Below are positions 1 through 25,400 of a DNA stretch of 64,000 nt, in pieces (the stretch's first letter is position 1; every line of letters starts with the position of its first letter). Both the position numbers and the translations under genes were made by a program. Under the pieces are notes generated by a model, which was given only the letters and a program-made list of their open reading frames with translations, was not told where the DNA came from and did no database searches. Origin of the DNA: Microthyrium microscopicum (Eukaryota); NCBI GenBank assembly GCA_010405405.1, contig MU004233.1:313067-377066 (forward strand). Direction: 5' to 3'.

Positions 1-2977
1 AAACTACTTAAAATTAAGTAAGCTAAGATTATATACTATAAAGTATAATAATAAATAATAAAACTTATTTTAATATTATAAATTATATCTTAACTAAGAA
101 GCTTTAATTAAAAATATATTATTTCCTAAAGAAGTTAACTAAATACTTAAATAGTATACTTATAACTATTTATAAAGTAGTAACTACTAAAGTAATAGTA
201 GTTAATTCTAATAAAATCTTAAAGACTAATAAAGTATTATTTTATATTATAAACTTACTATATTATATAATTATTATAAAAATACCTTAGCTTAAAAACT
301 AGAACTCTTTATTAAACTTTAAGGTTAAGACTTTATTCTTTATTTATCTAAAAAATAACTATTATAGTAAAATTAGCTTTATCTCTCTAAAGAAATTACT
401 TTAATTAAGTTAAAATAAATTTACTTAGCTCTTTAAGTATTTAATAGGTTTATTAGACTATACTAATTTATAAGACTTACTATATTACTATAAGGAACTT
501 ATAAAAGCCTTTAATAAAAATAAAATATAAGATTTAGTAGAATATAGTCTATAAGACTTAGCTATTAACCTTAAGCTAAGTATAAGTATACTCTATAAGC
601 CTATTTATAGCCTATTAGAAATAAAACTAGTTATTCTATATAAATACCTTAAAAAAGACCTTAAAAGAGGATTTATTTATAAATCTTAGTCTTTTACTAG
701 AGCTTTAATTATCTTTATAAAAAAAAAGAATAATACTTTATATTTATATATAGACTATAGAAACTTAAATAATATTATAATTAAGAACTATTATACTTTA
801 CTACTAATTAAAGAATTATTAAACTAACTATTAAAAGCTAAGCTCTATATAAGCTTAAACCTTTATAAAATATACTATTATATCTATATTTATATTAATA
901 ATAAGTAAAAGATAGTATTCTAAACTAAATATAAATCCTTTAAATACTAAGTAATATTCTTTAAGCTTACTAATACTTTTACTACTTTCTAAATATATAT
1001 TAACTAAGCTTTATATAGCCTTATTAATATAACTTATATTATCTATCTTAATAATATTCTTATTTTTTCTAAGAATAAAGAAGATTATATTAAATATATA
1101 AAGAAAGTACTTAAAAGACTTATTAAGTTTAAATTATATACTAAGCTATTAAAGTATAGCTTTTATATAAATTAAACTAAATATCTTAAATATATTATAA
1201 CTTTAAATAGTACTATAGTAGAACTAGAATAAATTATAATAATTATAAATTAGCTAACGTTACGTAATATATATTAAGTAAAAGAATTTATTAGCTTTAT
1301 AAACTACTATTAATATTTTATTACTAATTTCTTTTATATTACTTCCTTATTAAACTCTTTAACTAAGAAGCTTTTAAGGTAAACTCTAAAAGATTAATAG
1401 CTATATAATAAGAAATTAGTTTCTATTAACTTTTCTTCTAAAGCTATTTAATTCTTTAATAATCTAAAGGCTACCTTTATATATATATTAATTTTTATTT
1501 ATTATAATTCTATATTAAAAACTTATCTAAAAATAAATACCTTTAAGTAAGTAATTTATAATATTTTAAGCTAAAAATAAACTAAGCTAAGCTAAGAAGG
1601 CTAATAATAACTTATAATATTTTACTTAAAAAAGCTATTAAGACTTAAGAATTACTATAAAACCCTATAGTAGAAGTTTCTAGCTATTATTAACTCTATA
1701 AGAATTTTTTATAAGTACTTATATAATATTCTAAAGTTCTTAATTCTAATAGATTATATAAACTTTTATTTACTTAATATATTCTAAAATATTTTTATTA
1801 TATATATAAAATAAGTAGATTTCCTTACTAAGTTTAAGTTTAATATTAAGTACTATTTAGAGAAGATAAACTCTATAAATAGACCTTTATAAAGACTAGA
1901 CTATATTTTCTTAGGTAATATAAAGTAGAAAAAAACTATAAATATTTTATTAAACCTTATCTAAGATAAACTATAACTATTTAAAGCTTTTAAGTCTAAT
2001 AAAGACCTAACTAGATTTATTAATACCTTAATTATATTTATTAATACTTTATTATAGTATTTAAAAAATAATTCTTAAAAAGTAAATATTATTACTATAT
2101 TAGATATACTTAATAGCTCTTCTACTAAGCTAATAAAAAATAAATAAACCTATCTATAAATAAAGATTATTATAAAAGATAGTAGAGTTTAAGTTTTTTA
2201 ATATTTTTATAATAACTTCTTAAAAAGAGGCTATAAAGACTAATATAAAATATTAAAAAAGATTTAATACTATTATATTTAAGATAATATTAATAAGAAT
2301 ATTTAAGAATACTATATAGTCTATTTAAAGTATAAATAAAATATATCTACTAAATAAAACTAAAATAAGCTTTTTCTACTCTTACTAGTACTAATAGCTC
2401 TTTAGAAAGATATTATAGTTAATTTTATTACTAACTTACTTCTAAGTATCTTTTAAGAATAGCTATATAATTCTATTATAATAGTTATCTATAAACTAAC
2501 TAAAATAGCTTATTATATACTTTATTATAAAGATATAGATATAAATAATCTTACTAAGCTCTTTTTATATAAAGTAGTATAACTTTATAGTATACTAAAT
2601 ATAATTATATTTAATAAAGGCTTTATATTTATTTCTAAGTTTTAGAATATATTTCTTTACTACTTAGAAATCTAATAAAAGCTATTTACTACGTTCTAAC
2701 CTTAGATAAATAAATAAATAGAGCATTAAAACTAAAAAATTAAGTACTATTTATATATTTATTATAGCTAAAAGTAGAATAATTAAGCTAAAAAGCTTAA
2801 TCTTACTAAGTTTATATATAATAATAGTATATATAGCTTAACTAATATTACTCTATTTATAATATATATAGATAAATACTTATATATATTAGAAGAACTT
2901 AAAGAGTACTTAATAAGTATTACTCTTAATATAAAAGAATTAGTAGAATATATTCTATTTCTCTAAAGAGCTCTTTA

Positions 2978-3337
2978 TATTAGAGATTAGAGTTATAAAG
3001 TAGATAGAAAGATTATAAGATACTTAATAGATTAAGTATATAAAAATAAAGATAGGAGTAATTACTAAGGAACTATAAGAAGATTCCTTAGCCTCTATCT
3101 TATTACTTAGAAACCTCTAAGGTTTCTCTTTAAGTTAGAGTAGTCTATTTATAAGCTAAAGTACTTTAAAGGTATAATTAGCTACTAATCGTAATAATTA
3201 AGAACCTATTAGTTCTTTTAACTATAGAATATACTAAAGCTAAAGAAGTAGCTCTATTAACTTTTAATAGCTATTAGGCTAAAGTACTTAGGTTATAATA
3301 CTTATTTTAGAGAGTTTATTAGGTTTAATTCTTAATA
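2978..3337 (-). repeat. 3' LTR of element B (360 bp)
   Basis: Termini tatt...aata are RIPed TG...CA. Matches 11323-11682 directly and 30165-30524 as reverse complement. Confidence 0.92.
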
Positions 3338-4037
3338 TTATCTTCTTAATAAGGACCTAAATATCTTTATAAGTTTCTAAAAGATTAACTATATTCTAAT
3401 AGTACTAATATGCTTTAAGGTATATTATATTATAATAGTATAAATTACTTAGCTATTATCTAGCTAGCTAGATAATAATCTTAGTAAATCCTAGTAAATC
3501 TATTATTAGTTTTAAATATTACTTAAAGGGATACTTTTTAAATAATAATTTATAAAGCTAAATATTACTATTAGGTACCTATTTAGGTTTATCTAGGTTT
3601 ATTAAGAACTTAAGCGTTTTTAAGTTTCTTTAGGCTATTACTTTAAGCCTACTTAATTTATAGGTTATTATCTATTAAGAGTAATTTTCTTCTTTAGAAC
3701 TTTTACCTATAGTAAAGATTAATATTAAAGCTTTTCTTAATAGGAAGTACTTAATAAAGTAAGTATTTACTCTTTACTAACCTAATTAGGTAGGAGGATA
3801 TTAAATAAGATATATTTAATCTTATAATTATATACTTCTTTTAATTTTTTTTTATTCTATTTTTATAGAATTAAGATATATATCTAAGTAAATCCTAGCT
3901 AACTAAGTAAAGCTAACCTTTATAAATAGAGCTATAGTATAAGAATAAGTCTTAATTAGTAGTTCTAATATTTTACTAGTAACTTCTTTATAAATCTATT
4001 TAGTATATTTTATATCTTTTTATATCTATTTTCTCTA

Positions 4038-5701
4038 ATAGCTATTATAAAGAATAAAGTAAAAGCTAATAAAGCTCTAAATAGACTTAGTTTATTTCTA
4101 TCTAACGCTTTTAAGGTTTTTAAAAATACTATTAATCTACTAAAAACTTTAATTATTAGTATTATAAAATTAACTAATTCTACTAATACTAATACTACTA
4201 AAAAAGTAATTAACTAGGTTAAATTTGTTAATAGTATTAAAGTTAATACTAATAATAATTATATTAAATTATTAAGTTTAGGCTATTTCTCTTTAAAGCC
4301 TTCTAAATTTAAAGAGATTAAAGAGGATACTACTTAGGCTAAGAAAAAAAAAAGGTTTCTAAGTATAACTATAGTAATAAGTCTAAACCTTCTTAGCTTA
4401 ATATAAAGTAAATACGTATTAATAATATTATACGTATTAATAAGGCTTAGGCTTAGTTTAAATTATACTAAATCTCTTTTATTTATAATATATTAATTAA
4501 TTATAGTTAGTTAAGTAGTAAATATCTTCTATATAACTCTAATAATAATAAAATAAAACTATTTAACGTAAATAAGTTTATTCTATATAAGAATAAGACT
4601 AAGTTAATTATTAAATAGTTTCTTTTACTTAATTCGTATTAGTAATATACTAAAGTATATACTAAGACCTTTCTATATACTAATCTAAAGAATTAGTACT
4701 ATATAGCTTATAAAGACTATATATTAGCCTTTAAGGTTTAAAATAATTACTATTATATAATTTATAAAACTATAAAGTCTTATTAGTAATATCTTAAGGT
4801 AAGTTATTCTTAATTAATTTAATTTAAATCTAATTATTACTAACTATTTCTTAGGTTATTCCTTACAAGAAAGGTATTGTTAAGGACCTTATTATAAAGT
4901 ATTATAATATATTAAAGATCTATATACTTTACTAATAAACTTATAATAATAATCTAAGTAAGTATAATATAAGTTAGCTTCTTTATACTTAAAAGATAGT
5001 TTATATTACTAATAAAGACATTATAAAGGCTATCTAGATATAAGTAAACCTTCTTATTATACTTAGGTTTAAACTAATATAAATAAGTATATCTATATTA
5101 ACGCTATAAACAATACCTTTCCTCTATATTCTAATATTACTAAGGATAGATATAATAGTATCTATATAATACTAGTATATTATAGTAATAGTAAAGATAT
5201 CCTTAAGGCTAAGAAGGCTACCTATTACTCTAAAATAGCTTTACTTAGAGCTACTATTAAGACTACTTATATTAAGTATTATAATAACCTTTATACCTAT
5301 TATTATAAATTTAAATTACTTATAAATAATAGCTAGAAAGATATAAGTACTCTAATTATATTACTTAGATTTTAACTAACTCTATTTTAAATTATAAGTA
5401 CTTTATTACGTTAAATTAGTAAGCTTACTAATATTATAAAGATACTTACTTCTTAGTAAGTTAATAATACTAAAAAGAAGAAGAAAACTTTTAATATAAG
5501 TTAGTTTATAACCCTTTAGAGCTAGATTAATAAGTATAAGCTTAGTTTAAGTAAGTAGATAGTTTTTTGTTACTATCTAGTTATAATAAGTTAAATTAAT
5601 TCTAATAATAATAATTTAGAGACTAAAGAGTCTAAAGAATAGATATAATATTTAGTAAATATATTTAGTATTAAGTTAATATATTTAGTATCTAATAGAT
5701 A
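4038..5701 (+). pseudogene. RIP-degraded intron-containing extra gene, antisense to pol, in the 3' region of element B (homologous copy in A on the minus strand)
   Basis: Three intron-like segments (4799-4854, 5040-5086, 5343-5390) with GTAAGT-type donors and ACTAAC/T branch sites link one codon-like frame. There are 82 stop-free codons at 5088-5333. Ends are approximate. Confidence 0.6.
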
Positions 5702-8700
5702 AAGTTAGTTATATTTTAGGTTTATTATAAGCTATTTATTAGTACTTAGTAGCTATTAAGTTCTATTTAAATTAATTTATATAAATAGTATAAGATAGTT
5801 TCTTTTAATAAAATACTTTTTTAAATTTCTAAGTTCTTTCTTATAAACTTAGATAGTACTTAAGAATATATTTCTATAAACCTAAAATTATTATTTTAAG
5901 GTATTTAAAGAGTACTCCTTTAAAGATTAATAAGTAAAGCTAAAGTAATATTAATAATTTTAGATTTAGGTTTAAAATTAGTTTTATATTTAATTCTAAA
6001 TTTTCTCTAAGTCTTTTCTATTTAAACTATATTTATATATATATTTATAGAAACTTATTTATTCTAAAGTATTAAAATAGTACTATCTAAGTACTATTTA
6101 GTTTTATCTATATAAGCTTATCTTAATTATAAGTAAAGTAAATTATTATTATATATCTATATATACTATAAAGTAACTATATTTTTATATTTATCTTTTT
6201 TATAAAAAAAGGCTTATTCTAAGTCTTATTATAACTATTTTAATCTACTTAGCTCTTTCTTAGCTAATATAGGTTTAGTAAGCGCTAAAAACTTCTTTAG
6301 ACGTTTCTTTAGCTTTTTAAACTCTAGATAAGGTTTATTTAAGTTAAGTTATTTTAAGTTATATTTAGTTACTTTTATTAAAGCTAATTTAGCTAGAGAG
6401 ATACTTTTTTTCTTTAACTTTTTTTAATAACGCTTTAGCGTAATTAAGAAGAAGTTATTAATAAATTCCTAGCTTACTTTAAATATAGAGTAGTTCTTTT
6501 ACTTTACTTTATAGTAATAGATATTATTTTTATTAACCTTATATTTAATTACGCCTTTAACCTTATAGTAATTAGTCTCTTTAAGGTTTAAAGTTTTCTA
6601 AAATAAAACTATTTACTATAAAAAGTATATATTAAATATATATTATTATAATAAAGAGATATAGAAGATATTATAAACTAGAGTACTTTTAAGTAGATTA
6701 ATATAATACGTATTATAGTTAATAACTTCTATTACTTTAAAGAGATCTATATACTTAATATCTAGTTTCTTTTTAAACTTAGTCGTTCTAATATTCTTTA
6801 TATTAAGTAGAACTTAGTTATTTATCTTTAAGGTAACGTCTTTATAGCCTTTATTATAGTATTTAGCTTATAGGATTTAAATATTCTCTAGATAGGCCTA
6901 AAGGGCTTTTTAAAAGAATAGAATATATTTTACTAGTTTCTTTACATTAGGAGTAGTATCTATTAGATACTTTTTAGGTACTTCTAATATATATAGATAT
7001 TTATCTATATATACTATAAATAAAGTAATACTAGTTAAGCTATATATATTATTATTATATATAAACTTAGTAAGATTAAGCTTTTTAGCTTAATTATCCT
7101 ACTTCTAGTTATAATAAATATATAAATAGTACTTAATTTCTTAGTTTTAATACTCTATTTACTTATTTATTTAAAGTTAGAATATAGTAAATAGCTTCTA
7201 TTAAATCCTTAAGTAGTAAAGAAATATATTCTAGAACTTAGAAATAAATATAGAGCCTCTATTAAATATAATTATATTTAATATATTATAAAGTTATACT
7301 ACCTTATATAAAAAAAGCTTAGTAAGATTATTTATATTTATATCTTTATAATAAAATATATAATAAGCTATTTTAGTTAGCTTATAAATAATTACTATAA
7401 TAAAGTTATATAGCTATTCTTAGAAAATACTTAGAAGTAAGTTAATAATAAAATTAATTATAATATCTTTCTAAAAAGCTATTAGTACTAATAAAGATAG
7501 AAAAAGCTTATTTTAGCCTTATTTAATAAATATATTTTATTTATACTTTAAATAAACTACGTAGTACTCTTAAATATCTTTATTAATATTATCTTAAGTA
7601 TAATAGCGTTAAATCTTTTTTAATATTTTATATTAGCTTTTATAGCCTTCTTTTAAGAGATTATTATAAAAATATTAAAGAATTTAGACTTTACTATTCT
7701 TTATAATAACCTTTATCTATAGATAGATTTATTTATTTTCTATTAGCTTAATAAAAGAACTATTAAGTATATTTAATATAGTAATAATATCTACTTCTTA
7801 AGAATTATTTTTTAAATACTATAATAAAGTATTAATAAATATAACTAAAGTATTAATAAACTTAGTTAAGTCTTTATTAGACTTAGAAGCCTTAAATAGT
7901 TATAGTTTATCTTAGATAAGGTTTAATAAAATATTTATAGTTTTTTTTTACTTTATATTACCTAAGAAAATATAGTCTAGTCTCTATAAAGATCTATTTA
8001 TAGAGTTTATCTTCTCTAAATAGTACTTAATATTAAACTTAAACTTAATAAGGAAATCTACTTATTTTATATATATAATAAAAATATTTTAAAATATATT
8101 AAATAAATAAAAATTTATATAATCTATTAAGACTAAGAACTTTAAAATACTATATAAGTACTTATAAAAAACTCTTATAAAATTAATAATAGCTAAAAAT
8201 TTTTACTATAGAGTCCTATAGTAACTTTTAAGTCTTAATAGCTTCCTTAAGTAAAATACTATAGGTTACTATTAGCTTTCTTAGCTTAGCTTAGTTTATT
8301 TTTAGCTTAAAATACTATAAATTACTTACTTAAAGACGTCTATTTCTAAATAAGTTTTTAATATAAAATTATAGTAAATAAGAATTAGTATATATATAAA
8401 GATAACTTTTAGGTTATTAAAGAATTAAATAGCCTTAAAAGGAAGGTTAATAAGAACTAATTCTTTATTACGTAGCTATTAGCCTTTTAGGGCTTACTTT
8501 AAAAACTTTTTAATTAAAAAGTTTAATAAAGAAGTAATATAAAAGAAGTTAATAATAAAACGTTAATAATAGTTTATAAAGCTAATAAACTCTTTTATTT
8601 AATATATATTATATAGCGTTAGCTAATTTATAACTATTATAATTTATTCTAGTTCTACTATAATATTATTTAAGATTATAATATACTTAAAGTACTTAGT

Positions 8701-11322
8701 TTAATTTATATAAAAGCTATACTTTAATAGCTTAATATATAACTTAAACTTAATAAGTTATTTAAGTATCTTCTTTATATATTTAATATAATCTTTTTTA
8801 TTTTTAAAAAAAATAAGAATATTATTAAAGTAGATAATATAAGTTATATTAATAAAGCTATATAAAGCTTAATTAATATATATTTAAAAAGTAGTAAAAG
8901 TATTAGTAAGCTTAAAGAGTATTACTTAATATTTAAAGGATCTATATTTAGTTTAGAATACTATCTTTTACTTATTATTAGTATAAATATAAATATAATA
9001 ATATATTTTATAAAAGTCTAAGCTTATAAAAAGCTTAATTCTTAATAGTTAGTCTAATAATTCTTTAATTAATAGTAAAGTATAGTAGTTCTTAACTATA
9101 ATATTATTTAAGCTTCTATAGTCTATATATAAATATAAAGTATTATTCTTCTTCTTTATAAAAATAATTAAAGTTTTAATAAAAGATTAAAATTTATAGA
9201 TAAATCTCTTCTTAAAATTTTTCTTAAGATATTTATATAAAATAACTAGTTTTACTTCTAATAGACTATAAATAGGCTAATAAAGTATACTTATACTTAA
9301 CTTAAGATTAATAGCTAAGTTTTATAAACTATATTCTACTAAATTTTATACTTTATTCTTATTAAAAGCTTCTATAAGCTCCTTATAATAATATAGTAAG
9401 TCTTATAAGCTAATATAGTTTAATAAACCTATTAAATACTTAAAGAACTAAGTAGATTTATCTTAACTTAATTAGAGTAACTTTTTTAAAAAGATAAAGC
9501 TAATCTTACTATAGTAGTTATTCTTTAAATAAATAAAGAATAAAGTCTTAGCCTTAAAGTTTAGTAAAAGGTTCTAGTCCTTAAATTAGAGTATCTTTAT
9601 AATAATTATATAGTATAATAAGTTTATAATATAAAATAATACTTTATTAATCTTTAAGATCTTATTAGAGTTAACTACTATTACTTTAATAGTTATTACT
9701 TTATAAATAGCTATAGATATACTATTTAAATACTTAGCTAACTTCTTTAAGAGATAATATATCTTTAATTAAAGCTTCTTAGCTAAGATATAATCTATAA
9801 TATTAAAATAGGCCTTACTATTTATTATTATACTCTATAATATATAATCTTAGCTTACTTAATTTTAAGTAGTTCTTTATAAAATAATTTAGTATAATTT
9901 CTTTAATTAATATACTTTCTTATTTAGAATCTTCTTATTTCTTACTACTTTTAAGACTTAAATAATAATAACTTTATAAAAGTTACTAAGAAGGTTAAGA
10001 ATTAGATTATTTATAATAGAAACTATAAAATCCTAATTAACTACTTTATAGCTTAGTCTTTTTCCTTAATTTTTTTTAGCTTTAGGTTAAAATACTTATA
10101 AGCTATATAGCTTATCTTATTATAGTTCTAATACTTACTTTTACTAAGATTACTAAGAAATAGCTATTTAACTTTAAGTATTATATTACTCTTTAGTTTA
10201 TCTAGCTTTAAAGCCTTATTAAAAAGGCTTAGTTTAGACTTTTTTAACTTATTTTTTTAAGAACCTTATTAAGTCTTATTCTTTAAATTTATAAATATTA
10301 AATACTATTTAAAGGATTTACTATTTTTAATATCTTTCTTAAAAATAGTTAGTATCTTTTAGTTACTAATAAATTTTAAGTACTTTAAAATATATTAAGA
10401 TAAAACTTCTTTAGCTATCTTAATTATATAGTTTAAGTTAAAGATTATATTATTTTTAAAGTAAGTAAATAGTTTATTACTAAAGAATAATAAGTAAATT
10501 AATATATTATTAATCTTATACTTATAAAAAAGAAGTATAAGCTTATTAAAGTATTCTTAGAAGGTTTTTTTTCTTATTATAGTAGTTAAGAGGCTCTAAA
10601 AGGCCTTATAATACCTCTTAATAAGTAGACTAAGGAGTTTAAAGGCCTATTATTTTATAAGGGCCTATATAGGTTTATATTAGTTTAGTTTAACTAACTA
10701 GATCTAGAAATTAACGTAATTATCTTAAATAGATTATATAACCTCCTTATTAAGGTAATTATAGGCTTAAAAGATTACTAAATATAGGTCCTTCTTATAT
10801 TTCTTTATAATAAGTATATTAGTTATATTAAAGACTTAATCCTTATACTCTTATAGACTTTTAGCTTTATATATTTATAGTTTATTATTACTATAAACTA
10901 ATTTAGAATTATTATATTTAATATAGGCTAAAATAGCTAGGCTAGCATTATATTAATCCTATTTATTAATTTATTTAACTAAGTAGAGTTTTCTATATTT
11001 ATAAGCTACTTTTATTACCTTAAGTTATTTAATCTTAAGTATATTATATATTTACTATATTTTAGCTTATAATTATTTTAGCATCTTTTTTATATTTACT
11101 ACTAGTTTTAGATAGGCTTATTTTATATTAGTAGAATTACCTATAGAGCTACTTAGTTTTACTAGAGTTAGTATAGCTATATTTAGTATAACTAGATTTA
11201 GTCTAGCTAATTTTACTCTAGGGGCCTTATTCTTAAGTTTTATTAATTTATTACTTATAATTAATTATAGTATTTTAAAGGAAAAGCTTTATAAATACTT
11301 TATTAATAAGAAGTAATTATAA

Positions 11323-11682
11323 TATTAGAGATTAAGGTTATAGAGTAAGTAGAAAGGTTATAAAATACTTAATAGATTAAATATATAGAAATAGAGATAA
11401 GAATAATTACTAAGAAACTATAAGAGAATTCCTTAACCTCTATTTTATTACTTAGAAACCTTTAAGATTTCTCTTTAAGCTAGAGTAGTCTATTTATAAG
11501 TTAAGGTACCTTAGAGGTATGCTTAGCTACTAATTATAATAGTTAAGAACTTATTAGTTCTCTTAACTATAGAATATACTAAAGCTAAAGAAGTAACTTT
11601 ACTAGCTTTTAATAGCTATTAGGCTAAGGTACTTAGGCTATAATACTTATCTTAGAGAGTCTATTAGGTTTAATTCCTAATA
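11323..11682 (-). repeat. 5' LTR of element B (360 bp)
   Basis: Direct repeat of 2978-3337, followed by TSD cttta. Confidence 0.92.
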
Positions 11683-13449
11683 CTTTAAGCTTATTTAAAA
11701 AATATTTAAATCCTATAAGCTAAATACTATAATAAAGGCTATAAGGATATTACTTTAAAGATAAATAACTAGGTTTTACTTAATATAAAGAATATTAAAA
11801 TAACTAAGTCTAAAAAGAAACTAGATATTAAGTATATAGGCTTCTTTAAAGTAATAGAAGTTATTAACTATAATATATATTATATTAACTTATTTAAGAG
11901 CGTTTTAGTTTATAATGTCTTCTATATCTCTTTATTATAATAATATATATTTAATATATACTTCTTATAATAAATAGTCTTACTTTAAAAAATCTTAGAT
12001 CTTAAAGAGACTAACTACTATAAAGTTAAAGATATAATTAAATATAAGATTAATAAAGATAATACCTATTACTATAAAGTAAAGTAAAAGAATTACCTTA
12101 TCTTAAAAGTAAGTTAAAAATCTACTAGTAATCTTTTCTTAATTATACTAAAACGCTACTAAAAGAAGTTAAAAAAAAAGGATATCTCTCTAACTAAATT
12201 AGCTCTAATAAAAGTAACTAAATATAACTTAAAATAACTTAACTTAAATAAACTCTATCTAAAAAATAAGAAGCTAAAGAAATATTTAAAGAAGCTTTTA
12301 ATACCTACTAAATTTATACTAGCTAAGGAAAGGCTAAGTAAACTAAATAGTTATAATAAGACTTAAAATAAGTCTTTTTTTATAAGAAAGATAAGTATAA
12401 AAGTATAATTACTCTATAGTATATATAGATATATAATAATAATTTATCTTACTTATAATTAAGATAAGCTTATTTAAATTAAACTAAATAGTACCTAAAT
12501 AATACTATTATAATACTTTAGAATAAATAGATTCTTATAGATATATATATAAATATAGTCTAAATAGAAAAGACTTAGAGAAAATTTAGAATTAAATATA
12601 GAACTAATTTTAAACTTAAATCTAAAACTATTAATATTACTTTAGCTTTACTTATTAATCCTTAAAGGAGTATTCTTTAAATACTTTAAAATAATAATTT
12701 TAGGTTTATAAAAATATACTTCTAAGTACTATCTAGGTTTATAAGAAAGAACTTAAAAATTTAAGAAAGTATTTTATTAAAAGAAACTATTTTATACTAT
12801 TTATATAAATTAATTTAAATAGAACTTAATAGCTACTAAGTATTAATAAATAGCTTATAATAAACCTAAAATATAACTAACTTTACTTATTAAATACTAG
12901 ATATATTAACTTAATACTAAATATATTTATTAGATACTATATTTACTTTTTAAACTTTTTAGTCTCTAAATTATTATTATTAAAATTAATCTAACCTATT
13001 ATAACTAGATAGTAATAAAGAACTACCTACTTACTTAAACTAAGCTTATACTTATTAATTTAATTCTAAAGGATTATAAACTAACTTATATTAAAAACTT
13101 TCTCCTTCTTTTTAGTATTATTAACCTATTAAAAAGTAAGTATCTTTATAACGTTAGTAAGCTTACTAATTTAATATAATAAAATACCTATAACCTAGAA
13201 TAGAGTTAATTAAAATCTAAGTAATATAATTAAAGTACTTATACTCTCCTAGCTACTATTTATAAGTAATTTAAATTTATAATAATAAACGTAAAGGTTA
13301 TTATAGCGCTTAATATAAGTAATACTAATAGTAGCTTTAAGTAGAGCTATTTTAAAGTAATAAATAGCTTTCTTAGCCTTAAGGATATTCTTACTATTTC
13401 TATAATATACTAGTATTATATAAATACTATTATATTTATTCTTAGTAAT

Positions 13450-13651
13450 TATTAGAAACCTACGGGCGTAAGGGTGTAAGCTAATAGTAGATATAATTTA
13501 AGAAAACTAATACGAAGAATCTAAGAGAAAGAGTAAAGAATAATTATAGGTAAGCTATACTAAATAATCCTTAGGCGCTAAGCCCTTAGTATTACGTAAT
13601 AAAAGATACTAATAATATTATAATAGGATTAATAGTAATAGATCCGTAATA
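13450..13651 (-). repeat. 3' LTR of element C (202 bp)
   Basis: Matches 20661-20853 + 28409-28417. The adjacent pyrimidine run at 13655-13665 is a polypurine tract on the minus strand. Confidence 0.88.
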
Positions 13652-16600
13652 ATACTCTTCTCTTTAAGATTAGTACTTCTAAGCTAAAAACTTATAAAAG
13701 GATAAGATTTATAATTAAGTTATATAGTCTTATAATTCTAATACTTTTAGGGTATAAAATATAAAATATAAAAAGTAAAGATAATATTCTTCCTTTATAT
13801 ATAACTACTATATATATTTATTCTTTATACTATTTTCTAGCCTACTAAAGTAACTATTAAGAAATATTAACGAACTTTAAAATATTTTTAGAATACTCTA
13901 GTTTATAGATTAAGTATTAAGGTACGTATAGTAGTATTCTTTACTATTTTAGGGAAAGTTTATCTAAATTATACTTCTTCTCTTTCTTTTTTTAAGAGTT
14001 TATAAATATAGAATATAGCCCTAGTTTATTAGGATTTTAGTTATAGTACTTAGTAATAAGTTCTAAATAAGAGTTAAGATTTAACTATAGTTACTAATTA
14101 GAGTTATAGTTTTAGTTATCTTATTTTATAAACTAGACTTTATACTATAAAACCTTCTTCTTACTAAAGCCTTTTATAATACCTATCTTATTATTAATAA
14201 TATAGTTAACTATCTACTCCTACTTTATATTATTATTTATATTTATAATTATAAAGGAGTTATCTAGTTCTTAAAGTATAGTAATATATTTAGAAATAAG
14301 ATAAAGTAGCTAAGTATAAAAAATAGAGTAAATCTTTATCTTCTCTAGTAGTTCTAGCTTATAGGTAAGAATATTAATCTTCTTAATAATCTTAAAGAGT
14401 TTTATAAATTTATTATTAAGGAATTTTAATAGTTAAAGAAATTTATAATAATAAGTATTAAAGTATACTTAATTACCTAGTTTAAGGTTTAGTACTAGTT
14501 AACGAGTCTTATTAGCCTATTTTTTTATAAGGGCAATAGACTATAAGATCTATTCTTAGAAATACTTATAAAGATTAGTATAAGTATAGAGATATTAGTT
14601 AGTAAGTTACTATTTAGTTTAGGTTAGCTTAGTTCTTAAGTAAGTCTTTAGAAGTATTAGTTCTAATCTTAATTAAGAAAGATAACTATTAAGTATACGA
14701 AAGGGACTTATTTTAGTAAAGGCGTAAATAACGTAGTTAGTTTTAAACTTAGTAAATAATAGTAGTTCTATCTAGTCGTTCTATTACTAGTTAATAAAGT
14801 ATCTAAAGTAAGCTTTTAATATTATAACTAATATTTCTATAATATTATTACTTTATAGATACTAAGTAGTAATTAGGTAGATAATAATACTAATACGTTT
14901 ATAGAGACGTTACTAAAATATAGATATAAATTATAAATTATAGTTAGAAAGAATAGAGTTAGACTATTTAGTATATTTCTAGATTTAGTTAAGAAACGTA
15001 AGAACTATTATTTATATACTTAAGTTAAAAAGAAGTATATATTATTAGGTATATATTAGCCTATTTATAACAACTATAATATAATAGTAGATAGTTTTAA
15101 GATAAATATAAGGTAGTAAAGTAACTATAAAGTTAATAGAGATATTAGATTAGGCGTAGTTAAGTAATAGAAATAACTAGAGAAGATCCTACTTTTTTTA
15201 TTTAACTAGCTTAGAGAACGCATACTTATATACTTTTATATAGTATTTTATATCTTTAGCTATATAGGGCTAATAGTAAAATTAATAAAAACGCTAGTAT
15301 ATAGAAGCTATATTATTATAACCTATTACTTTATAATTATATATATATTTAATAGCATAGTATTAGAGACGTTTTATAGGAATAAGAAGTTATTATCTAT
15401 ATTAAATAGTATTATTAGTAAGTACTTAGTAATTACTAAGTTTAATTAGGTCTTTTTTTAGAGTACTATATAGTAAGCAATATAATTATATAGCTTTAGA
15501 GTTATAGATTATTTAGATAAGCTTATTTAATTAGCTAGCCTTAATAATATCTTTCTATAATATCTTTAGATTAATTAATATATTATCTATTTTAAAGTAA
15601 TTAATTAGCTTACTTAGAATTAGGATAGAACTCCTTATAGTTAGTTAATTAATTAGCTTACCTTTTATAGTTAGCGCATTAACTTTATTAGTAATAATTA
15701 TAGTAAGTTTAATTATTATAGGTTATTTATTATTAATAAGAAGGATAGCAATTTTAATAGTATATTAAATATTATAAGAATAAGAGATTTCGTAGTAGGT
15801 ATTAAAGTTATAAGAAGAAAAGATTAGTTATATTTATTAGGTAATCTATAGATTATTATTAGATTTTAGAAAATCTTATAATCTTTAAGTTAGCATATTT
15901 ATTTTTACGTTAAAGAGACTATTATAATATTTAATCTTAAATTAGAATTAGAAAAGGAACTTTATCTATTAAGTTTAATAATAAGATAGCTTTTTAGTTA
16001 ATATAAAAGTACGTAAGTTAAGATAGTTAGTAAAAACCTATATAGAGTTAAAGGTTAAAAATAATTTAAGTTTTTATTCTTTAAACGCTTATATAATTAT
16101 AAGTAGCTCTTTATTATAAATGTTATAATTATACTTTACTAGAATTATCTTTTTAGAAAGAAAAGCTACTAGATAAAGCTTACTATTTACGCCCTTTTAA
16201 GAAAGAATAGCTACTATTATTTAGTCTAAGGCATTAGTTTTAACCTAAGTCTTAGTATTAGGATTAAAATAATAAAAGATTAAAGTAATAGTAAAAGCCT
16301 TCTTTAAGGCGTTAAAAGCTTATTCTTTAGGTCTAGTCTTACTTTATAAGAAGTATAAGGAAGCGTCTTTTTAAATTAGTATAATAAGTAGTATAATAAT
16401 TTTTAAGTATTCTTTAATAAAATAGTAATAGAAGTTTATAAAGCTAAGGAATATTTAGATATTCTTTAAAGAAATAGAGTAATACTAATTAAGTATAGTA
16501 TTAACCTTCTTTTTATTTATTTAAATTCTATTAAGTATAATAATAATACTAAGATATTTAACTAATTAGGTTATAAACTTAGATTTAGAAATATTAAGGT

Positions 16601-19600
16601 AAAGTCTAGCTTTTTTAAGCTTATTAAGAATTAAGTAAATATAAGTAATATATTCCTCTTTAGTCTTACTCTAAATAAGGACGTTATTAAAGTAGACTAT
16701 AATAAAGTTATTAAAGTATTTATATACTATACTATTAATATAAGATTAAAAGCTTTTTAGTAATTTTATTATACTAAATAGTATTACTAAGGTTTTAAAA
16801 AGTCTATAGCGTATTAAGAACGTAATTTTATATTTATTCTCTTTATAAATTTAAATATTATTAAAGATAGTAATAATATTAAATTATAAAAAGAATTTTA
16901 CTTTATAAATCTTTATTAAAGTTTCTATTAAGAACAAAAGTATATTTTAGTTAATTAGTATAATCTTATTAAGTTTATAGTAGTTAATATAGATATAAAT
17001 ACTATTACCTAGTTTACTAATATATAATATAGATATAGCATAATAAGAGATACTTAGTTAGATAAAGCTTTTTCTAAGTATATTTTTAATATATTCCTTA
17101 ATAACTTATACTTATTAGTAAGATATATTATAGAATTTACATATAAGTACTTTTATATTTAGGTTAGTAGTAATAGTATAGTTAAAGCTTAGTTAGTATA
17201 GTAGTAGCTTATTAGTTTAGTAGAAGTTAAATAAAGAGATATAGTAATAGAATTTTAGTAGTATTAATTTTAATAATTCTTCTTATATTAGTAGGTTATA
17301 ATTAAGCTTTTTATACTATTTAGTATAGTTTTTAGTAAAGATTATAGTAATATTAATAACGTTCTATTAAGGAATAGGATTAAGGTCTTCTTCTTCTTCT
17401 AAAGTAATAAAGTCTTCTTAGTAAAGAGCTATAAAGTAGTAATCTTTATATTATATTATAGCTATAAAGACTCGTAGTAATACTATATAGATATTAAGAG
17501 TTCCTTCTTATCGTTTATTTATAATTACTTAACCCTTATAGTTAATAGTTATTAAGTAATAGAAAGTTATATAGTATTTTATATAATGCTTAGAGTAGAA
17601 GCTTAATATATATTAGCCTTCTTAGAGTATAACTTTATACTTATTTATTTATAGATTACTAAGGATTATATTATAGTTAGTAACTTTTATTATAAAGTAA
17701 AGAATCTATTTAAGGTAGATATTAATACATAATATAATAGCTACTATATAGGTTATTTTTATAATAGTATAGTTATTAGCTATTTTAGCGTAGTAGAGTT
17801 AAATTATCTTTACTAATAGAATACTATAAATTTAGAAGTAATAAGGATTAATAATACTAAAGACACTACTACCTATATTAATTAGGACTTTTATTTTAGT
17901 ATATACGTTATTATTAATAAGAATATTACTAGTAGTACTTTACTATTAGCCTATCTTTAAAATAGAATATTTTAGTAATTAGTTAATAGGAATATAGATT
18001 ACTAATATATAAATAATAGCTATACTTATAGAAGTACTTTTAATTTTAGAGTTACTTAAATAGTTAATAATAGCCTCTATTTAATATTTTTATTATTTAT
18101 TATATACTTCTATTTTATTTAGCTTTTTTATATAGCATTATAAAGGAGCGTTTAGTTTTCTTAGTCCTAGTAGTAATAATTATTATATATTAATAAACAA
18201 TTATACTATAGGGTTAGGTTTTATAGTTAGGTATTATTTTATTATAGATAAATACTAATAAGCTTAGTAGAGATATTAGAATTAGAGAAGGCTAATTTAC
18301 TTTTATACTTTAAGTTTTTATTTTTATAGTTATAACCTTATTTACTATATTAGATATAGCAATAGTCTCGTATTAGATATTAGTATAGAGTAATTTTATA
18401 GCGTAATATATAGTTAATTTAGTTATTAGTTTAGTTACTATTATTATTATTTTAATTACTAGATAGCTTATTCTTATTATTAGTTTTACGTTTAAGGTTT
18501 TAGTTAATAACTTATAACTTATTAATATATTTAGTAATAGTAGTAGCTTTAAAAAGAAATAGGTATTATATAATTTTTTTAATAATTATATATTTAAAAT
18601 AAGTAACCTTATTTACTTCTATAAAGCTAGCGTTAGTAATTTTATTATTAAACTTAGTAATATATAGAGCAAGCTTCTTAGTTTTTTTTATTTAGTTTAA
18701 AGAATTCTATAACTAGGTAATAACGTCTTTATAAGTATTATACTTTTAGGTATATTAATCTAGGTCTTTCTAGAACTCTATTATATTAGAATATAAGTTT
18801 AGTAATTTATATTATATATAGTTTTTAATAAATCTAAAGGTAATATTAAGAGTTTTACTATATACTTAAATAGTAGCATTTAGTTCTATAAGGAAAGAAG
18901 CTTACTTATTATAAAGATAGTCTTTAATACGAAGCTTTTATATAAGATATTATTTAAAGTTACGACTAAAGTATTTACTTAGATTACTTTATTTACGTTT
19001 TTTACTTTTACTATTAGCTAAGGATCTAGATACTATTAGAGTTAGGCTATTAGTTTTAATATAAGAAGCTTATTAATAAGAAGAAGGTATTACTTACTTA
19101 TTATTAGAATTAAGTTAGTAGATATTCTCTTTAGATTTATATACAAACTAACTAAGCTAGTTTTTAAGATCTTTATTCTAGAGACAAAAAGCTATAATCT
19201 TATTATACTTCTTAATATAGAAAGTACGTAGTTATTTAATATTATTAAGTACTTTATTAAGTTTTTATTAATTTATATTATAAGTATTCTTTAAATAGAG
19301 AACATATTTATTATCCTTATAGTTAGCTTTAATTATATAGTTAAGTTATTAGCAAAGTTAATTCGCCTTTATATATATTTTATTAACTACAACTATAGTA
19401 TTATTAAGTTTATTAGTTATATTTTTAATACTTTATTTATAATATTAGTAGGTATCTATTATATTATTTAATTAAGCATAAGTCTTTTAAGTATAGAGAT
19501 TAGCTACTTAGGCTAATTTAATATAACTATATAGTTATTTAAATTATATTTTTAGTAATATTATAACGCTATAAAGGAATTCTTTATAAGTCTTAATAAC

Positions 19601-20660
19601 TTTTAGATATAAGTTATCCTAAGTATAATATATAAGTATAAAGTCTAAAAAGACATTTTTAATAGTACTATCTAAAGAGATAGTTTTTTAGGCTTAGAAA
19701 GTAACTTCTTTATAGAGGAATTATATTAAGAATACTTAATTCTTCTTATTAGAAGTAATTAATTAGTAAGTAATAAGGTAAGAGAGTATTTAGTAATTTA
19801 ATAGTAATTCTTTAATTTAGGCTTAGTCTACTAGTTAAAGAGTAGCAATTAAAAGATTAGTAGAAAATGCCTTCTCTTTACTTTTATTTTAGAATTATAA
19901 TTAGCTATAAATATAGCTACTCTTAGTAATTTCTAGAACGTTAAATAGTAAAGATATCTTAACTATAGAGTTATAATAGAAGTATAAAGAATTATAGCGC
20001 AAAGGTTAGCTATAAGATAGTTCTATTATAGTATTATTTTTATTACTATTAACCTTAGTCTAAGTATAAAGTAGTATAATTATAGACTAAGTAATATTCT
20101 AAGTTCTTAATTACTATTACTTATAAAAATAAAATATAGAGCAAGTTTTATAAGTTTTAATAATGTCTTTTATAGTAAGATAAGGATTTAATATAAAGTA
20201 AGTATAAGTAATAAGTATAAATATTAAGAAGTCTTAAAATAAAGTATAGATAGGTTATAAAAGTATAATAGATAATTTAGAAAAAGGAGTAAGAAGTTTA
20301 ATTTATTATAATTTATCTTTAGGGCTTATTATAGTATAGTAGAATAAGTAAAGTTTTATTATAGATATAGTAGTAAAGAGAAGTAGTAGTAGTAAAGAAA
20401 GATTATTAATTTATAAGTCTAGTAGAGTAGAAGTTTTAGGTTAACTAGAGTCTTTTAAGCTCTTTAATTAGACGTTAAGAATCTAAGCTTCTAGTAGAGT
20501 TAAGAGTTAGAAATTTATATATTTACTACGCTAGTAGGTTAGATCTATTAAGATCTAAAAATAGAATTCTATATTTATATAGGTAAATATATTAAATCTT
20601 TAGATTTTAATACGCTAAATATTAGGATTATTTTTTAAATAGTATAAGGTATTAGTTTTA

Positions 20661-20853
20661 TATTAGGAACCTATAAGCGTAAGGATATAAGCTAATAATA
20701 GATATAATTTAAAAAAACTAATACAAAGAATCTAAGAAAGAGAGTAGGAAATAATTATAAGTAAGCTATACTAGATAATCCTTAGGCGCTAAGCCATTAG
20801 CATTACGTAATAGAGGATACTAATAATATTACAATAGAATTAATAGTAGTAGA
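20661..20853 (-). repeat. 5' LTR of element C (main part; last 9 bp displaced to 28409-28417)
   Basis: Direct repeat of 13450-13642, interrupted by element D. Confidence 0.88.
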
Positions 20854-21015
20854 TATTATAGGTTAGATAACAAAGAGATAAGTTATATTATAAGCCTACT
20901 AAATAGAAAAGTAACTTAGAGAGAAAAAAGAGTTAAAAAACTCTTTAACTAAGGTATTTATATATAATAGGAGTAGCCTAAATAGGCATAGCTTTAGAAA
21001 GTTTAATCCTTAATA
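20854..21015 (-). repeat. 3' LTR of element D (162 bp)
   Basis: Direct repeat of 28242-28403 with RIPed TG...CA termini. Confidence 0.92.
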
Positions 21016-21541
21016 TTACCTCCTCTATCTAAAAAATTCTAGCTAAAATACTAAGTTAATTATAAGATCTTAATCTTATTTAGCTATATTTAATACTTAC
21101 TATTTTTATAGTTTATAATAAAGCTTCTATTTATAATATATAGATCTATACGTTTACTTTTAAGTATAAAATATAAAGCTTAAGTTATTAACTATTAGTT
21201 CTATACTAGTATTTTACCTATTTTAAACTAAATTTTAGGTATAAGGCCTTTTTCTTAGTATATAATATTAGTTCTTTTTAGTTATAATCCTATAAAGGTT
21301 ACTTAATTTATAAGTTATTTTATTTATGCTTAGTTAGAGCTTTATTATAATATTAAGAGATAAGATTAAAAAAACATAACTACAATTAAGTTACTATATT
21401 TCTATTTATATATTTAGAAAGTATAAAGTAATATTATTCTATAAAGTTAACTATTCTTCTTTTATTATACTTTAAATAAGCTTCTTCTCTTCTAATTAGT
21501 TCTTATTAAGTTTCTTTTTTCTTACTTAATTAATTAATTAG

Positions 21542-22450
21542 GTAAGTTATTTATTATAATAACTATAGCCTTACTAACTATATAGAGATAGCTACCCTAA
21601 TTATTAATGTTTTTAATAATACTATTAGCTTTAATAGTTATATCCTTATTACTATTACTTTTATTTATATATTTATTATTAACTATAATGCTTCTTTACC
21701 TTATCTACTTACTACGCACAAGGTAGCTATATATAAGGCCTACTAGAACGATATAAATAAAAGCCTTTATCTTCTTAACTAAGTCCTACTTTATTACTAG
21801 AATAATATTATTTATAACCCTTATTTCTATTTACTAACTACTCTTTAATATAAGAAGATATATATAGTTATTAATTACTATAATCTATAAAACTATACTT
21901 TATTTAAGGCACTTTATATTAACTAGACTATACGTACTTTTTTAGCCTTTCTTAATTTATACTAATATATTTATAAAGTAAGGCCTTTTATATTATAACT
22001 AACTATTCTTCTAACTTTTTTAATAAGCGTCTTAACTTATTAAACGCTTTTTTTAAAGGGTTTACTAATAATTTATAGCCTAACGTTTATAATATTATAA
22101 TTTATTAAAGCTTTCTTAGTATAATTTAATTAACTAGTAGCTAGGCTAGTTATCTTAAAGCCTTAGGTATTTATTATATAAATATCTTATAATTCTTTAT
22201 TAAAAATAAGTAGAATAAGACTTATAAGGAGTAATATTATACTTATTATATTAGCGATTCTAATTTAAAGAATTAGTTATAATATATAGGTTATATTTAG
22301 CTTTTAGGATTTCATAATAATATATATTTAAACTATATTTATAATAATAATATTAGCTTAGCTAAGAAGTATCTTTATAATAATAAGAAAGAGGTTATTA
22401 AAAAAATTAAGAATTTTTTACTATTAATTATCTACTTTAGTCTTTCTATA
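21542..22450 (+). pseudogene. RIP-degraded intron-containing extra gene antisense to pol in element D, with a Cys-rich DUF3716-like motif
   Basis: Introns 21542-21585 (GTAAGT..ACTAAC..TAG) and 21930-21976. The frame from 21588 is stop-free for 52 codons. 22238-22336 de-RIPs to C-T-H-C-x14-C-IQLPGFHDG.-C-S-N-C. End is approximate. Confidence 0.6.
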
Positions 22451-25400
22451 TCCTAAGGTACTACTTAGGTTTTTCTTTCTTAGTAGTAGAGGTTTATTAG
22501 GTATATCTTATTTTTTTAGTTTTCTTATATTTTTATAATTTTCTAGTTTTATTTAGTAAGAAAGAGGGTCTTAATATAGATAAAAGAAAAGTATTTCTAT
22601 ATATAAGTTATAAATAGTACCTCTAATTATATCTCTATAAAGTTAATTACTATAATAAGAAAGCTAGTTTTTAATCTTAGTTATATTTAAAGAATAGACT
22701 AATTTAGTACTAATCTTTTATAATTATTTCATATATATTTTATCTTCTCTATCTACTTTATATAAGCTTTTAACTATTTAATAAAGTTAATTAGTTCTTT
22801 TATTATATTTAAATAATCTACCTATTTAATAATATAGACTATATAGAGTTTGCTCTTTATTATCTTCTTATATTTTTTAGCTATAATCTCCTTTACTAGC
22901 TACTTCTCTTATTCTTTTCTATCTAAGTCTTTAACTAAAATTAGTAATAGATAAGAATTATTAGTATCTTAACTTAGGAATAGGTTATTTATTACTAGTC
23001 TAAGTAAGTTAATATAAAATTTCTTAGTTCTTTATAGTATATTTAGTATAATTATATATAAGCTTATTATCTTTATAACTTAAAACTTAAAATAATAATA
23101 ATTAAACTTCTTCTTTACTTATTTAGTCTTAGTATTTTTTAAGTCTAGCTAGATTTAATTACTAACTTTATACTTAAGTATTTAGATCTTTATTTAGTTA
23201 GCTTATTTCTATATTTTTTCTTAGATAAGGATTATAGTATCTTAAGTCTATTTTATAGCTTTTAAAATTATATAAGTAGCTTCTTTTCCTTTTTTTCTTA
23301 AAGTATTCTTCTATTTAGATAAAGAAGCTTATTTAGAAAAGTCTAAGAAGATAAAGTTTTTAAAGCTATAGGATAAAAAAAAGAATAAAAGTTTTATTAT
23401 AAATAAATATTATAAGTTAAGTATAAGTTAAAGTATTAGTATTAGTAAGAACTAGTTTAATTATATATAATTTATATATATTTATACTTTAGCTTTAATA
23501 TCTAAGTTTTACTATTCTATAGAGCTATTTATTTAGAAATAAAATATAGTTAATAGCTATAACTCTATTTATAGTAGTATATAGAACTTTATTTAGAAGT
23601 CTTTTATAAATACTAGATTATAATTATAAATAATTATATTAGAAATACTATAAAGAAAATAGACGCATTATAAGAAAATAACTATAATATCTTTAATTTC
23701 TCTCTAAGTAAAGAGAATTAGGATTACTTTTTTACTTAGCTAATTAGTAATAACTATTAAGATTATATATCTATTTAATAAAAGAAGGTTTATTATAAAA
23801 TTTATAGATAGTTCTTACTATTATTAGCTTAGAATAGGTAGAGACTTTAGAAAGCCTTTTTTTTACTTATAACTAACCTTTAATTAGCTATATATACTAT
23901 AATTTTTTATAAAATACTTTATATTAGCTATAATTTTAGGCTAAAAGAAATATAGCTATAAAGCTTAGTAAATTTCTTTATAGCTAGAATAGCCTTAAGT
24001 TAAAGATATATAAGCTACTTATAATATTATTATTTATAAAGATTCTAAGTTTAGAATCTATAATTATCCTCTTTAGTAAAGATAATCTTTATTATTAATT
24101 AAGTAGTTAAGGATAGAGATTTTAATACTTATAATTAATAAAGAAAACTTTTATCTACTAGCTTTAATTATTTAATAAACTACTTAATAAGTATTATTAA
24201 CCTATACTACCTTATTTTACTAAGTTACTAATAGTTTAGAAACGTTTAGTATTAATAGTAGTAAGCTAGAAATTAAAGCTTTATTAGCTAATTAAGTCTC
24301 TACTAGTTTATCTTTAACTACTATAGAAAGAATAATAATATAGATAAGTAAAGCTTATAGTAATTTAAGTAATTAATCTCTTTAAATATAAAGTAGTTAG
24401 AAAGTTCTAGCCTAGATCTTCTTATTAGCTACGTTTTAGAGTATATCTTATTTATAATAAAAAAAACTATCTACTATACTATTCTATAAGCCTAAATAAT
24501 ACTTAATTATTATATTATACTTTATAAGTTTAATAAACTATTAAATATACCTTTCTATAAGCTTTTATAGTTTTATAAAATACTCTAGGTTTTTATAATT
24601 AAATATTACTTTAAATTTTTCTACTACTTATAGCTCTAAGTCCTATTCTTTTAGAATAAATATAATTATAAGTATCTCTTTATTATAAATTAAGTAGTTA
24701 CTTTAAGTAAAGTTATACTTTTTAAAAAAATAGGCTACTAGTTAAAATTTACTTATTTTATTCTTTTATACTAGTATAGCTTCTAAAAAGTAACTAAAAG
24801 AGTTAGTATAGATAAAAGTCTCTTTATTATAGTTAAATAAAGCTAGTATCTAGTTAATAATAAAGAGCTATTTTAGCTCCTTAAATATAGCTTTCTTTAG
24901 GTCTTTAAATAAAAAGAAAATATCCTTCTAAGTAAGTTAAATAAGAGGTTTTATAATTATTTAAAAGTTTAGTATAAACTTATAATAGAAATTAGTAAAG
25001 CTAAGGAAAGCTTAAACTTTATAAATATTCTTAAGAGCCTCCTATTCTTAGATTACTTTAACTTTAGCTAAGTCTATTAAGATTCTTTATTTAGCCTTAA
25101 TAATATAACTTAAGTATATTATTTAAGTAGTTATAAATTTATACTTCTAAATATTAAGATAAAGTTTTACTTTTTATAGCTACTTAAAGACTTTATAAAT
25201 ATAGGCTTTATATTACTTCCTAGTACTTAAGCTAAAGATTAAGACGTTATCTAAGTATATAAAAATATAGTTATTTAAGATATCTTAAAGAGTAAAGTTA
25301 ATAAATCTCTAAAAAATACTTAGAGTATTTAATAATCTAAATAGTATTACTATCTATTTAAATAAGCTATATTATATCTAAAAAGTTATCTTCTACTTAT

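Follow-up and report, generated by a model that had tools for sequence, protein, structure and literature searches.

The 64,000-nucleotide stretch of Microthyrium microscopicum DNA considered here (GCA_010405405.1, contig MU004233.1, positions 313,067 to 377,066 of the forward strand; hereafter, the window, whose numbering is used throughout) falls into two parts, an AT-rich block at 1–37 kb (16–22% GC) and a gene-bearing flank at 38–64 kb (43–51% GC). The block consists of nested Ty3/gypsy elements mutated by repeat-induced point mutation (RIP), and the subject of this analysis is one of these, an 8.7-kb long terminal repeat (LTR) retrotransposon denoted copy N, which probably carried a gene antisense to pol in the region between the end of pol and the 3′ LTR. 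The parts of copy N that frame this region are the following.

2978–11682, minus strand: copy N, complete LTR retrotransposon, 8.7 kb (self-blastn and LTR alignment)
6232–9873, minus strand: pol, with reverse transcriptase (RT), RNase H, integrase and Tf2-type SH3 domains, heavily mutated by RIP (Pfam and protein matches)
6444–6573, minus strand: tentative chromodomain-like motif at the end of pol (by eye and regular expression in the translation)
about 3338–3352, minus strand: purine-rich tract resembling a polypurine tract (PPT), preceding the 3′ LTR
2978–3337, minus strand: 3′ LTR, about 360 bp (three-way LTR alignment)

Copy N belongs to the family designated A/B in the original prediction and is inserted in the pol gene of a second member of the same family, copy A, which lies on the plus strand. 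The direct repeats at 2977–3337 and 11322–11682 (89% identical) are the LTR pair of copy N, each of about 360 bp; three-way alignment of the two LTRs of copy N with the 3′ LTR of copy A places the termini at TA...TA, flanked by a 5-bp target duplication, CTTTA. Self-blastn aligned 2–2977 with 9874–6899 (90% identity), 5129–6903 with 13457–11683 (89%) and 2978–5160 with 30524–28399 (86%), in each case in reverse. The pol gene displays the RT–RNase H–integrase order of Ty3/gypsy elements, as judged from Pfam searches, run on translations with X at stops, and from protein matches. Pfam recognized SH3_Tf2-1 (E=1.2e-07, 6816–6640) and RT_RNaseH_2 (E=2.6e-05, 8424–8110) on the minus strand, and a Tf2-type SH3 domain also on the plus strand at 11770–11946. 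The minus-strand frame 6232–9873 matches six Ty3/gypsy polyproteins, the best being P0124 (E=1.9e-75, the next 1.9e-23), which contains RVT_1, RNase H, rve and SH3_Tf2-1 domains. P0124 has 1390 residues, appears unmutated and lies on a 13-kb contig; it is much the nearest relative of this pol. The pol of copy N keeps a single frame throughout, with 88 stops in 1190 codons of frame −1 versus 161 and 182 in the other two minus frames. A chromodomain-like motif was also spotted, by eye and regular expression, in copy A at about 12079; in the translations searched, the motif gave no match to Pfam Chromo. From the motif (about 6444) to the 3′ LTR (3337), the tail of copy N measures about 3.1 kb, in agreement with the original estimate of about 3 kb.

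The block bears all the marks of RIP, namely, depletion of CpA and TpG, excess of TpA and predominance of transitions in the divergence between copies N and A. The observed/expected ratios are 0.05 for CpA, 0.02 for TpG and 1.37 for TpA, and the TA/AT ratio is 1.64, compared with 0.69 in the flank; across positions 1–37000, only 64 CpA and 29 TpG dinucleotides are left. Between the two copies, 447 mismatches were counted over 2978–6903, of which 425 are transitions, mostly at CpT (156) and ApG (132) sites, whereas CpA/TpG sites are saturated in both copies. These residual differences fall on the dinucleotide pair, CpT/ApG, that is also given for RIP in Botrytis cinerea in the consulted portion of PMC8365987, a resemblance that hints at the host lineage without being diagnostic.

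Given that RIP produces only transitions, a sequence reduced to purines and pyrimidines is immune to it, and we accordingly measured the period-3 power (P3) of the purine/pyrimidine string along the tail. Two blocks stand out, 3969–4493 (P3 of 11.3, permutation p = 5e-05) and 5087–5342 (11.7, a value reached by none of 20000 permutations), both on par with the strongest gag-pol stretches of the block. Lower values were obtained for 4855–5039 (5.7, p = 0.0033, with the purine maximum at positions equal to 1 modulo 3), 5391–5550 (3.1, p = 0.048) and 4511–4798 (2.5, p = 0.076), and the flanking stretches 3338–3968 and 5702–6300 gave 0.6 and 0.8, respectively (values without a permutation test). 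Tandem repeats, considered as a source of the periodicity, do not account for it, the longest array detected spanning no more than 72 nt. Stops make up 7.4% of the codons of the true pol frame, compared with 12.5% across all frames, a density that fits the conversion of Gln, Trp and CGR codons to stops. The antisense region contains plus frames with even fewer stops, 2 in 102 codons over 4038–4345 and 1 in 85 over 5087–5342, and the frame is fully open over 5073–5333, that is, for 87 codons, where 82 had been counted originally. The basic KKKK patch and the acidic end noted at the same time are likewise present, as a lysine run at 4338–4349 and a Glu/Lys-rich stretch near 5610–5640. Statistics that RIP cannot distort give good support to a protein-coding stretch antisense to pol in the tail, which we regard as likely; the signal extends on the plus strand over about 4000–5340, and perhaps to 5640.

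The strand of this signal was assigned separately. The purine/pyrimidine pattern, together with the base composition of codon positions, was tried as a strand test and discarded as not decisive, being nearly symmetric between the strands. In 4028–4477, the exactly complementary frame contains 11–12 stops per 100 codons versus 1–3 in the plus frame; one of the minus frames is fairly open there, with 3–5 stops per 100 codons. A codon model trained on three RIP-mutated pol stretches ranked a plus frame first in four of the five tail segments, with a tie between +0 and −0 in the fifth (5391–5550). A small local gene-finder, which sets this codon model against a background model and admits RIP-tolerant splice patterns, gave the plus strand of the tail a score of 17.7 and the minus strand one of 5.5; across 150 dinucleotide shuffles the score was 6.2 ± 1.4, with a maximum of 10.7, and none reached 17.7. 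Even with introns disallowed, the plus strand scored 11.2 versus a shuffle maximum of 10.4. A relaxed intron pattern fixed a priori occurs in the tail 11 times on the plus strand and twice on the minus strand, with 4.1 occurrences expected per strand.

The structure assigned to the antisense sequence, where register denotes position modulo 3, is as follows.

3338–4037, plus strand: stretch without coding signal between the 3′ LTR and the antisense signal (P3 of 0.6, no preferred frame)
4038–4798, plus strand: putative exon 1 (periodicity of 3969–4493; register 0 to 4345, then 2; codon model +0, then +2)
4799–4854, plus strand: putative intron 1, 56 nt, GTAAGT...ACTAAC...TTAG (gene-finder choice in copies N and A)
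4855–5039, plus strand: putative exon 2, register 1 (P3 of 5.7; top codon-model frame +1; 5 stops in 61 codons)
5040–5086, plus strand: putative intron 2, 47 nt, ATAAGT...ACTAAT...TAA (gene-finder choice under both scoring models)
5087–5342, plus strand: putative exon 3, register 0 (P3 of 11.7; 1 stop in 85 codons; includes most of the open frame 5073–5333)
5343–5390, plus strand: putative intron 3 (weak), 48 nt, ATAAGT...ACTAAC...TTAA, with CTAG in copy A (alignment)
5391–5640, plus strand: possible exon 4 (weak), gene end undefined (P3 of 3.1 for 5391–5550; 8 stops in 83 codons)

The changes of frame speak for introns. Independent frame calls place 4038–4345 in register 0, 4511–4798 in register 2, 4855–5039 in register 1 and 5087–5342 in register 0, and the 56-nt and 47-nt segments have exactly the lengths required to join register 2 to 1 and 1 to 0, so that their removal restores a single frame (+2 to +1 to +0); exon 1 itself is single-frame only in copy A. 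With intron penalties of 2–4, the gene-finder chose 4799–4854 and 5040–5086 among 991 candidate introns. It also set a 95-nt gap at 4377–4471 in copy N, which merely compensates for a base missing from a purine run, because in copy A the program reads 29472–28760 (4030–4741 of copy N) as one exon, followed by the same 56-nt intron and then by 28703–28524. All three gaps placed in the tail alter the frame. In intronless gag-pol controls (about 20 kb, penalty 3), eight of the nine gaps placed were multiples of three, indicating that such gaps only skip low-scoring stretches.

All three segments proposed originally do lie at 4799–4854, 5040–5086 and 5343–5390, with GTAAGT and ATAAGT donors as described, but they resemble fungal introns to different degrees. 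The first has a GT donor, a CTRAY branch site and a YAG acceptor, and the strict GTAAGT..CTAAC..YAG unit occurs only three times in 74 kb of strand, this segment included. In the third, the donor reads AT in both copies, and an AG acceptor is present only in copy A, which keeps CTAG where copy N reads TTAA. In the second, the donor is again AT and the acceptor AA, in copy A as in copy N; this segment ends in TAA rather than the AG expected of an intron, and the coordinates and motifs originally given are right apart from this end. Branch-site words, ACTAAT or ACTAAC, stand 9–11 nt before the ends of the second and third segments (ACTAAT at 9 nt in 5040–5086). The states of the donors fit the RIP context (a slash marks the boundary). 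The G of G/GTAAGT survives, GpG being a poor target of RIP, whereas the two T/ATAAGT donors lie at TpG sites, which have been removed near-totally (observed/expected 0.02), consistent with mutated GTRAGT. In the same vein, the third segment has lost its ApG acceptor in just one of the two copies, as expected of the partially mutated CpT/ApG class (132 + 156 sites). The 24 nt just upstream of the ATAAGT donors of the second and third segments are alike (79%; 5023–5046 and 5326–5349).

Two other ways of treating this region were set aside. A single 288-nt intron at 4799–5086, which would keep +0 in copy N, is consistent in frame, but ignores the +1 signal of 4855–5039 and was not chosen by the gene-finder. 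An intron pattern constructed post hoc from the three candidates was found 20 times versus 10.6 ± 3.2 in shuffles, a circular comparison to which we assign no weight. Overall, the evidence for introns beyond chance is moderate; splicing is probably the best reading for 4799–4854 and 5040–5086, and that the antisense sequence contains real introns at all appears somewhat more probable than the opposite.

Copy A provides a second version of the gene, in which the corresponding sequence is split in two.

2–2977, 11683–13457 and 28399–30564, plus strand: copy A (self-comparison), with its 3′ LTR near 30165–30564
28399–29533, minus strand: equivalent of the stretch from exon 1 into the first part of exon 3, with 86% identity to copy N
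12884–13457, minus strand: equivalent of the remainder of exon 3 through exon 4

There are three levels of nesting across 2–30564, with copy A interrupted by copy N and by two LTR-bounded elements, 13450–20854 and 20853–28406, which lie side by side inside copy A's version of the antisense gene and split exon 3. Only three indels separate copies N and A in 3.9 kb: a 57-nt segment, one G and one base at 6238. The 57-nt (19-codon) segment, present in copy N at 4742–4798 and absent from copy A, is in frame and ends exactly at the GTAAGT donor, which is preserved; compared by eye in the purine/pyrimidine alphabet, it shows no match to intron 1, of which it had been considered a duplicate. The single G lies in the purine run 4343–4352, which includes lysine codons: copy A (about 29150–29160) has an extra G after the position equivalent to 4345 and, with it, exon 1 is in one frame, whereas in copy N the register of 4038–4345 is off by one base from that of the remaining exon. 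This difference could represent either a real frameshift in copy N or a homopolymer error in the assembly. Copy A rescues no stop in any of the three plus frames of 3700–5900 (59, 101 and 125 stops), because CpA/TpG sites are saturated in both copies; the two-copy comparison therefore cannot open the frame by reversing RIP and neither supports nor refutes the gene.

Homology searches of the antisense sequence returned no relatives. Six-frame translations of the tail of copy N and three frames of copy A matched no Pfam family at E<=5. The +0 translation of 3969–5701 had no match at E<=0.001 in a HMMER search of 1.84 billion representative sequences and none at E<=10 in a word-seeded search limited to proteins of 317–1010 residues, and the 87-residue open frame gave no usable match in the ESM Atlas. 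Compared by tblastx with the remainder of the window, the tail yielded only noise (at most 30 bits), indicating that it does not duplicate any other element there. These failures are uninformative, given that, under the same mutation load, Pfam misses even the RT of pol and its integrase core, and the suggestion made originally, that the product is a silencing suppressor or the gene a captured host gene, accordingly gains no support in either direction.

Taken together, these observations suggest, with a probability of roughly 0.6, that the tail of this chromovirus-like Ty3/gypsy family carried an antisense, probably intron-bearing gene. The ancestral gene would have comprised roughly 380–480 codons opposite gag-pol, starting about 0.7 kb inside the 3′ LTR and heading toward the end of pol, and would most likely have been interrupted by two or three short (47–56 nt) spliceosomal introns; its own promoter and 5′ untranslated region presumably lay within the 700 bp adjoining the 3′ LTR (3338–4037). 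Splicing does not remove introns that are antisense to the genomic RNA, which leaves them in place for reverse transcription and transmission with the element, and the introns of this family may have been copied along in this manner. RIP has since altered essentially every CpA/TpG, turning Gln and Trp codons into TAA or TAG, ATG into ATA and T/GT donors into T/AT. The antisense genes of both copies are dead, RIP-killed pseudogenes.

Several observations weigh against this reading. The frame is full of stops, none of which the second copy rescues, and the joined frame announced in the original prediction, although its registers do fit the removal of 56 and 47 nt, is not open, with 29 stops in 482 codons of the spliced model (6.0%, all TAA or TAG) and with 4038–4345 out of register in copy N, which requires an extra frame correction near 4345–4510. 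An unspliced single +0 frame has nearly the same stop density (37 of 534 codons, 6.9%). The exact intron boundaries depend on the scoring model: a model trained without the pol of this family replaces intron 1 with 4719–4843, at a score of 10.3, with only 5040–5086 unchanged, and at penalties of 6 or more the first exon is all that remains. The segment 5040–5086 lacks AG in either copy, and intron 3 and exon 4 are weak, not being chosen at penalties of at least 3, while a penalty of 2 prefers 5343–5459. On held-out pol, the codon model was only moderately accurate, identifying the correct strand in 36 of 47 windows and the correct frame in 24 of 47. Furthermore, copies N and A are not independent evidence, and no search produced a homologue. 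Of the multi-exon accessory gene proposed at the outset, antisense coding is well supported and splicing probable, whereas the third intron and the last exon are weak.

The strongest competing explanation, which we nevertheless consider unlikely, is an antisense open reading frame (ORF) without introns, in which the accessory gene had decayed to a pseudogene before the master copy spread, the frame changes are frameshifts within it, and the intron-like motifs result from RIP, which makes words such as TAAGT, CTAA and TAG abundant. In the 37-kb block, ATAAGT is present 95 times on one strand and 89 times on the other, and the relaxed intron pattern is found 1.34 times per kb per strand. The similar stop densities of the unspliced and spliced versions, the 1-nt indel inside the gene and the mobility of the intron boundaries are also compatible with this possibility. 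However, the purine maximum of 4855–5039 lies in register 1, and +0 scores far worse there, at −3.553 versus −3.231 per codon. The family is young, with its three indel events in 3.9 kb and a pol that stays in one frame, and the strict splice unit is rare. Moreover, each of the two frame changes coincides exactly with a segment that has the size of an intron and contains a branch-site word.

Slightly less credible is a passenger origin, in which a fragment of a host gene or of an intron-bearing transposon was transduced or inserted in reverse into the ancestor of the family, the element itself never making use of it. Cellular genes typically have introns, and the sequence resembles no retroelement protein family in Pfam; yet no homologue of any kind, cellular ones included, emerged from the HMMER and word-seeded searches. 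A 22-nt imperfect inverted repeat (82% complementary; 3329–3350 and 6443–6464) brackets the tail from the PPT/LTR edge to the end of the chromodomain-like motif, a point in favour of this origin, but it is one of 43 similar, chance-level pairs in the region, its left arm overlaps the LTR, and it is probably due to chance. Also against this origin, the whole 3-kb tail is kept in both copies, and their 57-nt difference is in frame and leaves the donor intact. By analogy with brtn of Boty and the antisense ORFs of Grande, RIRE2 and Retand, discussed below, we infer that the product may have been an accessory or regulatory protein of the element rather than a passenger.

Finally, the absence of any antisense gene, with either a sense-strand third ORF downstream of pol or a compositional accident in its place, is very improbable, because, despite the near strand symmetry of the purine-N-pyrimidine periodicity, the fairly open minus frame of 4028–4477 and the +0/−0 tie in 5391–5550, the minus strand scores at shuffle level (5.5 versus 17.7 on the plus strand), the exact complement of 4028–4477 is closed by stops and the two main blocks reach permutation p values of 5e-05 and <5e-05.

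Elsewhere in the AT-rich block, the element with LTRs at 20853–21018 and 28241–28406 may itself be composite; its best gene-finder scores fall on the plus strand in 21019–24500 (17.0) and on the minus strand in 24501–28240 (22.2). The flank carries the following genes.

39038–40042, minus strand: alpha/beta hydrolase
43061–44131: protein with a fungal transcription factor domain
46124–47668: protein kinase
50331–51227: methyltransferase
51480–53798, plus strand: HET-domain protein (PF06985), 773-codon open frame
56423–57145: Band 7/SPFH protein
60346–61002, minus strand: carboxylesterase

The top database match of the HET-domain protein has 58% identity, and its named relatives are spread over several ascomycete classes.

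The antisense accessory genes of LTR retrotransposons are poorly understood. The layout is not confined to fungi. In human T-cell leukaemia virus type 1 (HTLV-1), an animal retrovirus, the HBZ gene lies opposite gag-pol near the 3′ LTR, from which it is transcribed, and can be spliced without effect on the genomic RNA. The gene described here resembles HBZ in being antisense and near the 3′ LTR, and a sequence relation between the two is not expected. Antisense genes of deltaretroviruses are also mentioned in PMC11963269.

In plants, antisense ORFs have been described in several Ty3/gypsy elements, namely, gene 23 of Grande and those of RIRE2, Retand (with a TRP28 domain) and PvRetro13, for which a regulatory role is considered possible in the sections drawn on here (PMC7264820, PMC11963269). 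According to the same sections, the region between pol and the 3′ LTR of Retand spans 2.9–6.6 kb and holds an ORF antisense to gag-pol, and a title cited in PMC11963269 indicates that the antisense ORF of Grande is transcribed from its own promoter. Copy N shares with these elements, as they are portrayed there, a long region between pol and the 3′ LTR with an ORF antisense to gag-pol. Unlike copy N, they belong to plant non-chromovirus lineages; unlike Retand, the tail of copy N has no match to TRP28 or any other Pfam domain in the frames searched in both copies. The word ‘intron’ does not occur in the main text of PMC7264820 or PMC11963269.

The closest parallel is fungal. An extra antisense gene between pol and the 3′ LTR, brtn, has been reported in Boty-like Ty3/gypsy elements of Botrytis cinerea as well as Sclerotinia sclerotiorum (Zhao et al., 2011, Virology 417:248; as cited in the passages seen of PMC7264820, PMC8365987, PMC4227169 and PMC5987419) and is the only fungal antisense gene of this layout found in the literature searched. 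The defining feature of the Boty layout, coding sequence in antisense orientation between pol and the 3′ LTR, is found in the tail of copy N by both the gene-finder and the periodicity. Going by published description only, and by the parts of it cited above, both are fungal Ty3/gypsy elements, with a chromodomain in Boty and a tentative chromodomain-like motif in copy N, whose extra antisense gene encodes a protein without a known domain, and the host of Boty also has many such elements in RIP-mutated, low-GC form (PMC8365987). The two differ in size, full-length BcGypsy1/Boty being about 6.4 kb (Table S2 of PMC8365987, as far as consulted) compared to the 8.7 kb of copy N. The novelty attached to the hidden antisense gene in the original prediction was overrated, a gene in this position being already in print, to judge from the relevant lines of PMC7264820, PMC8365987 and PMC4227169.

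It is possible, if doubtful, that the gene was acquired independently and is no relative of brtn, a chromovirus lineage in a different ascomycete having taken up, in reverse, a cellular gene with introns and retained it as a factor encoded by the element; were this the case, antisense spliced accessory genes would represent a recurrent solution in fungal LTR retrotransposons, as in plants and deltaretroviruses. Because both copies are dead, the biology of the gene is accessible only in less-mutated relatives. As to method, purine/pyrimidine periodicity combined with a codon model from RIP-mutated pol can recover strand, frame and exon structure at 18% GC, where homology searches fail. A second, larger element with the brtn layout and apparent introns would suggest a wider spread of such genes in ascomycetes and would offer a point of comparison for their function. 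By analogy with Boty, the antisense gene of copy N looks like a further example of a layout already known from brtn rather than a new kind of gene.

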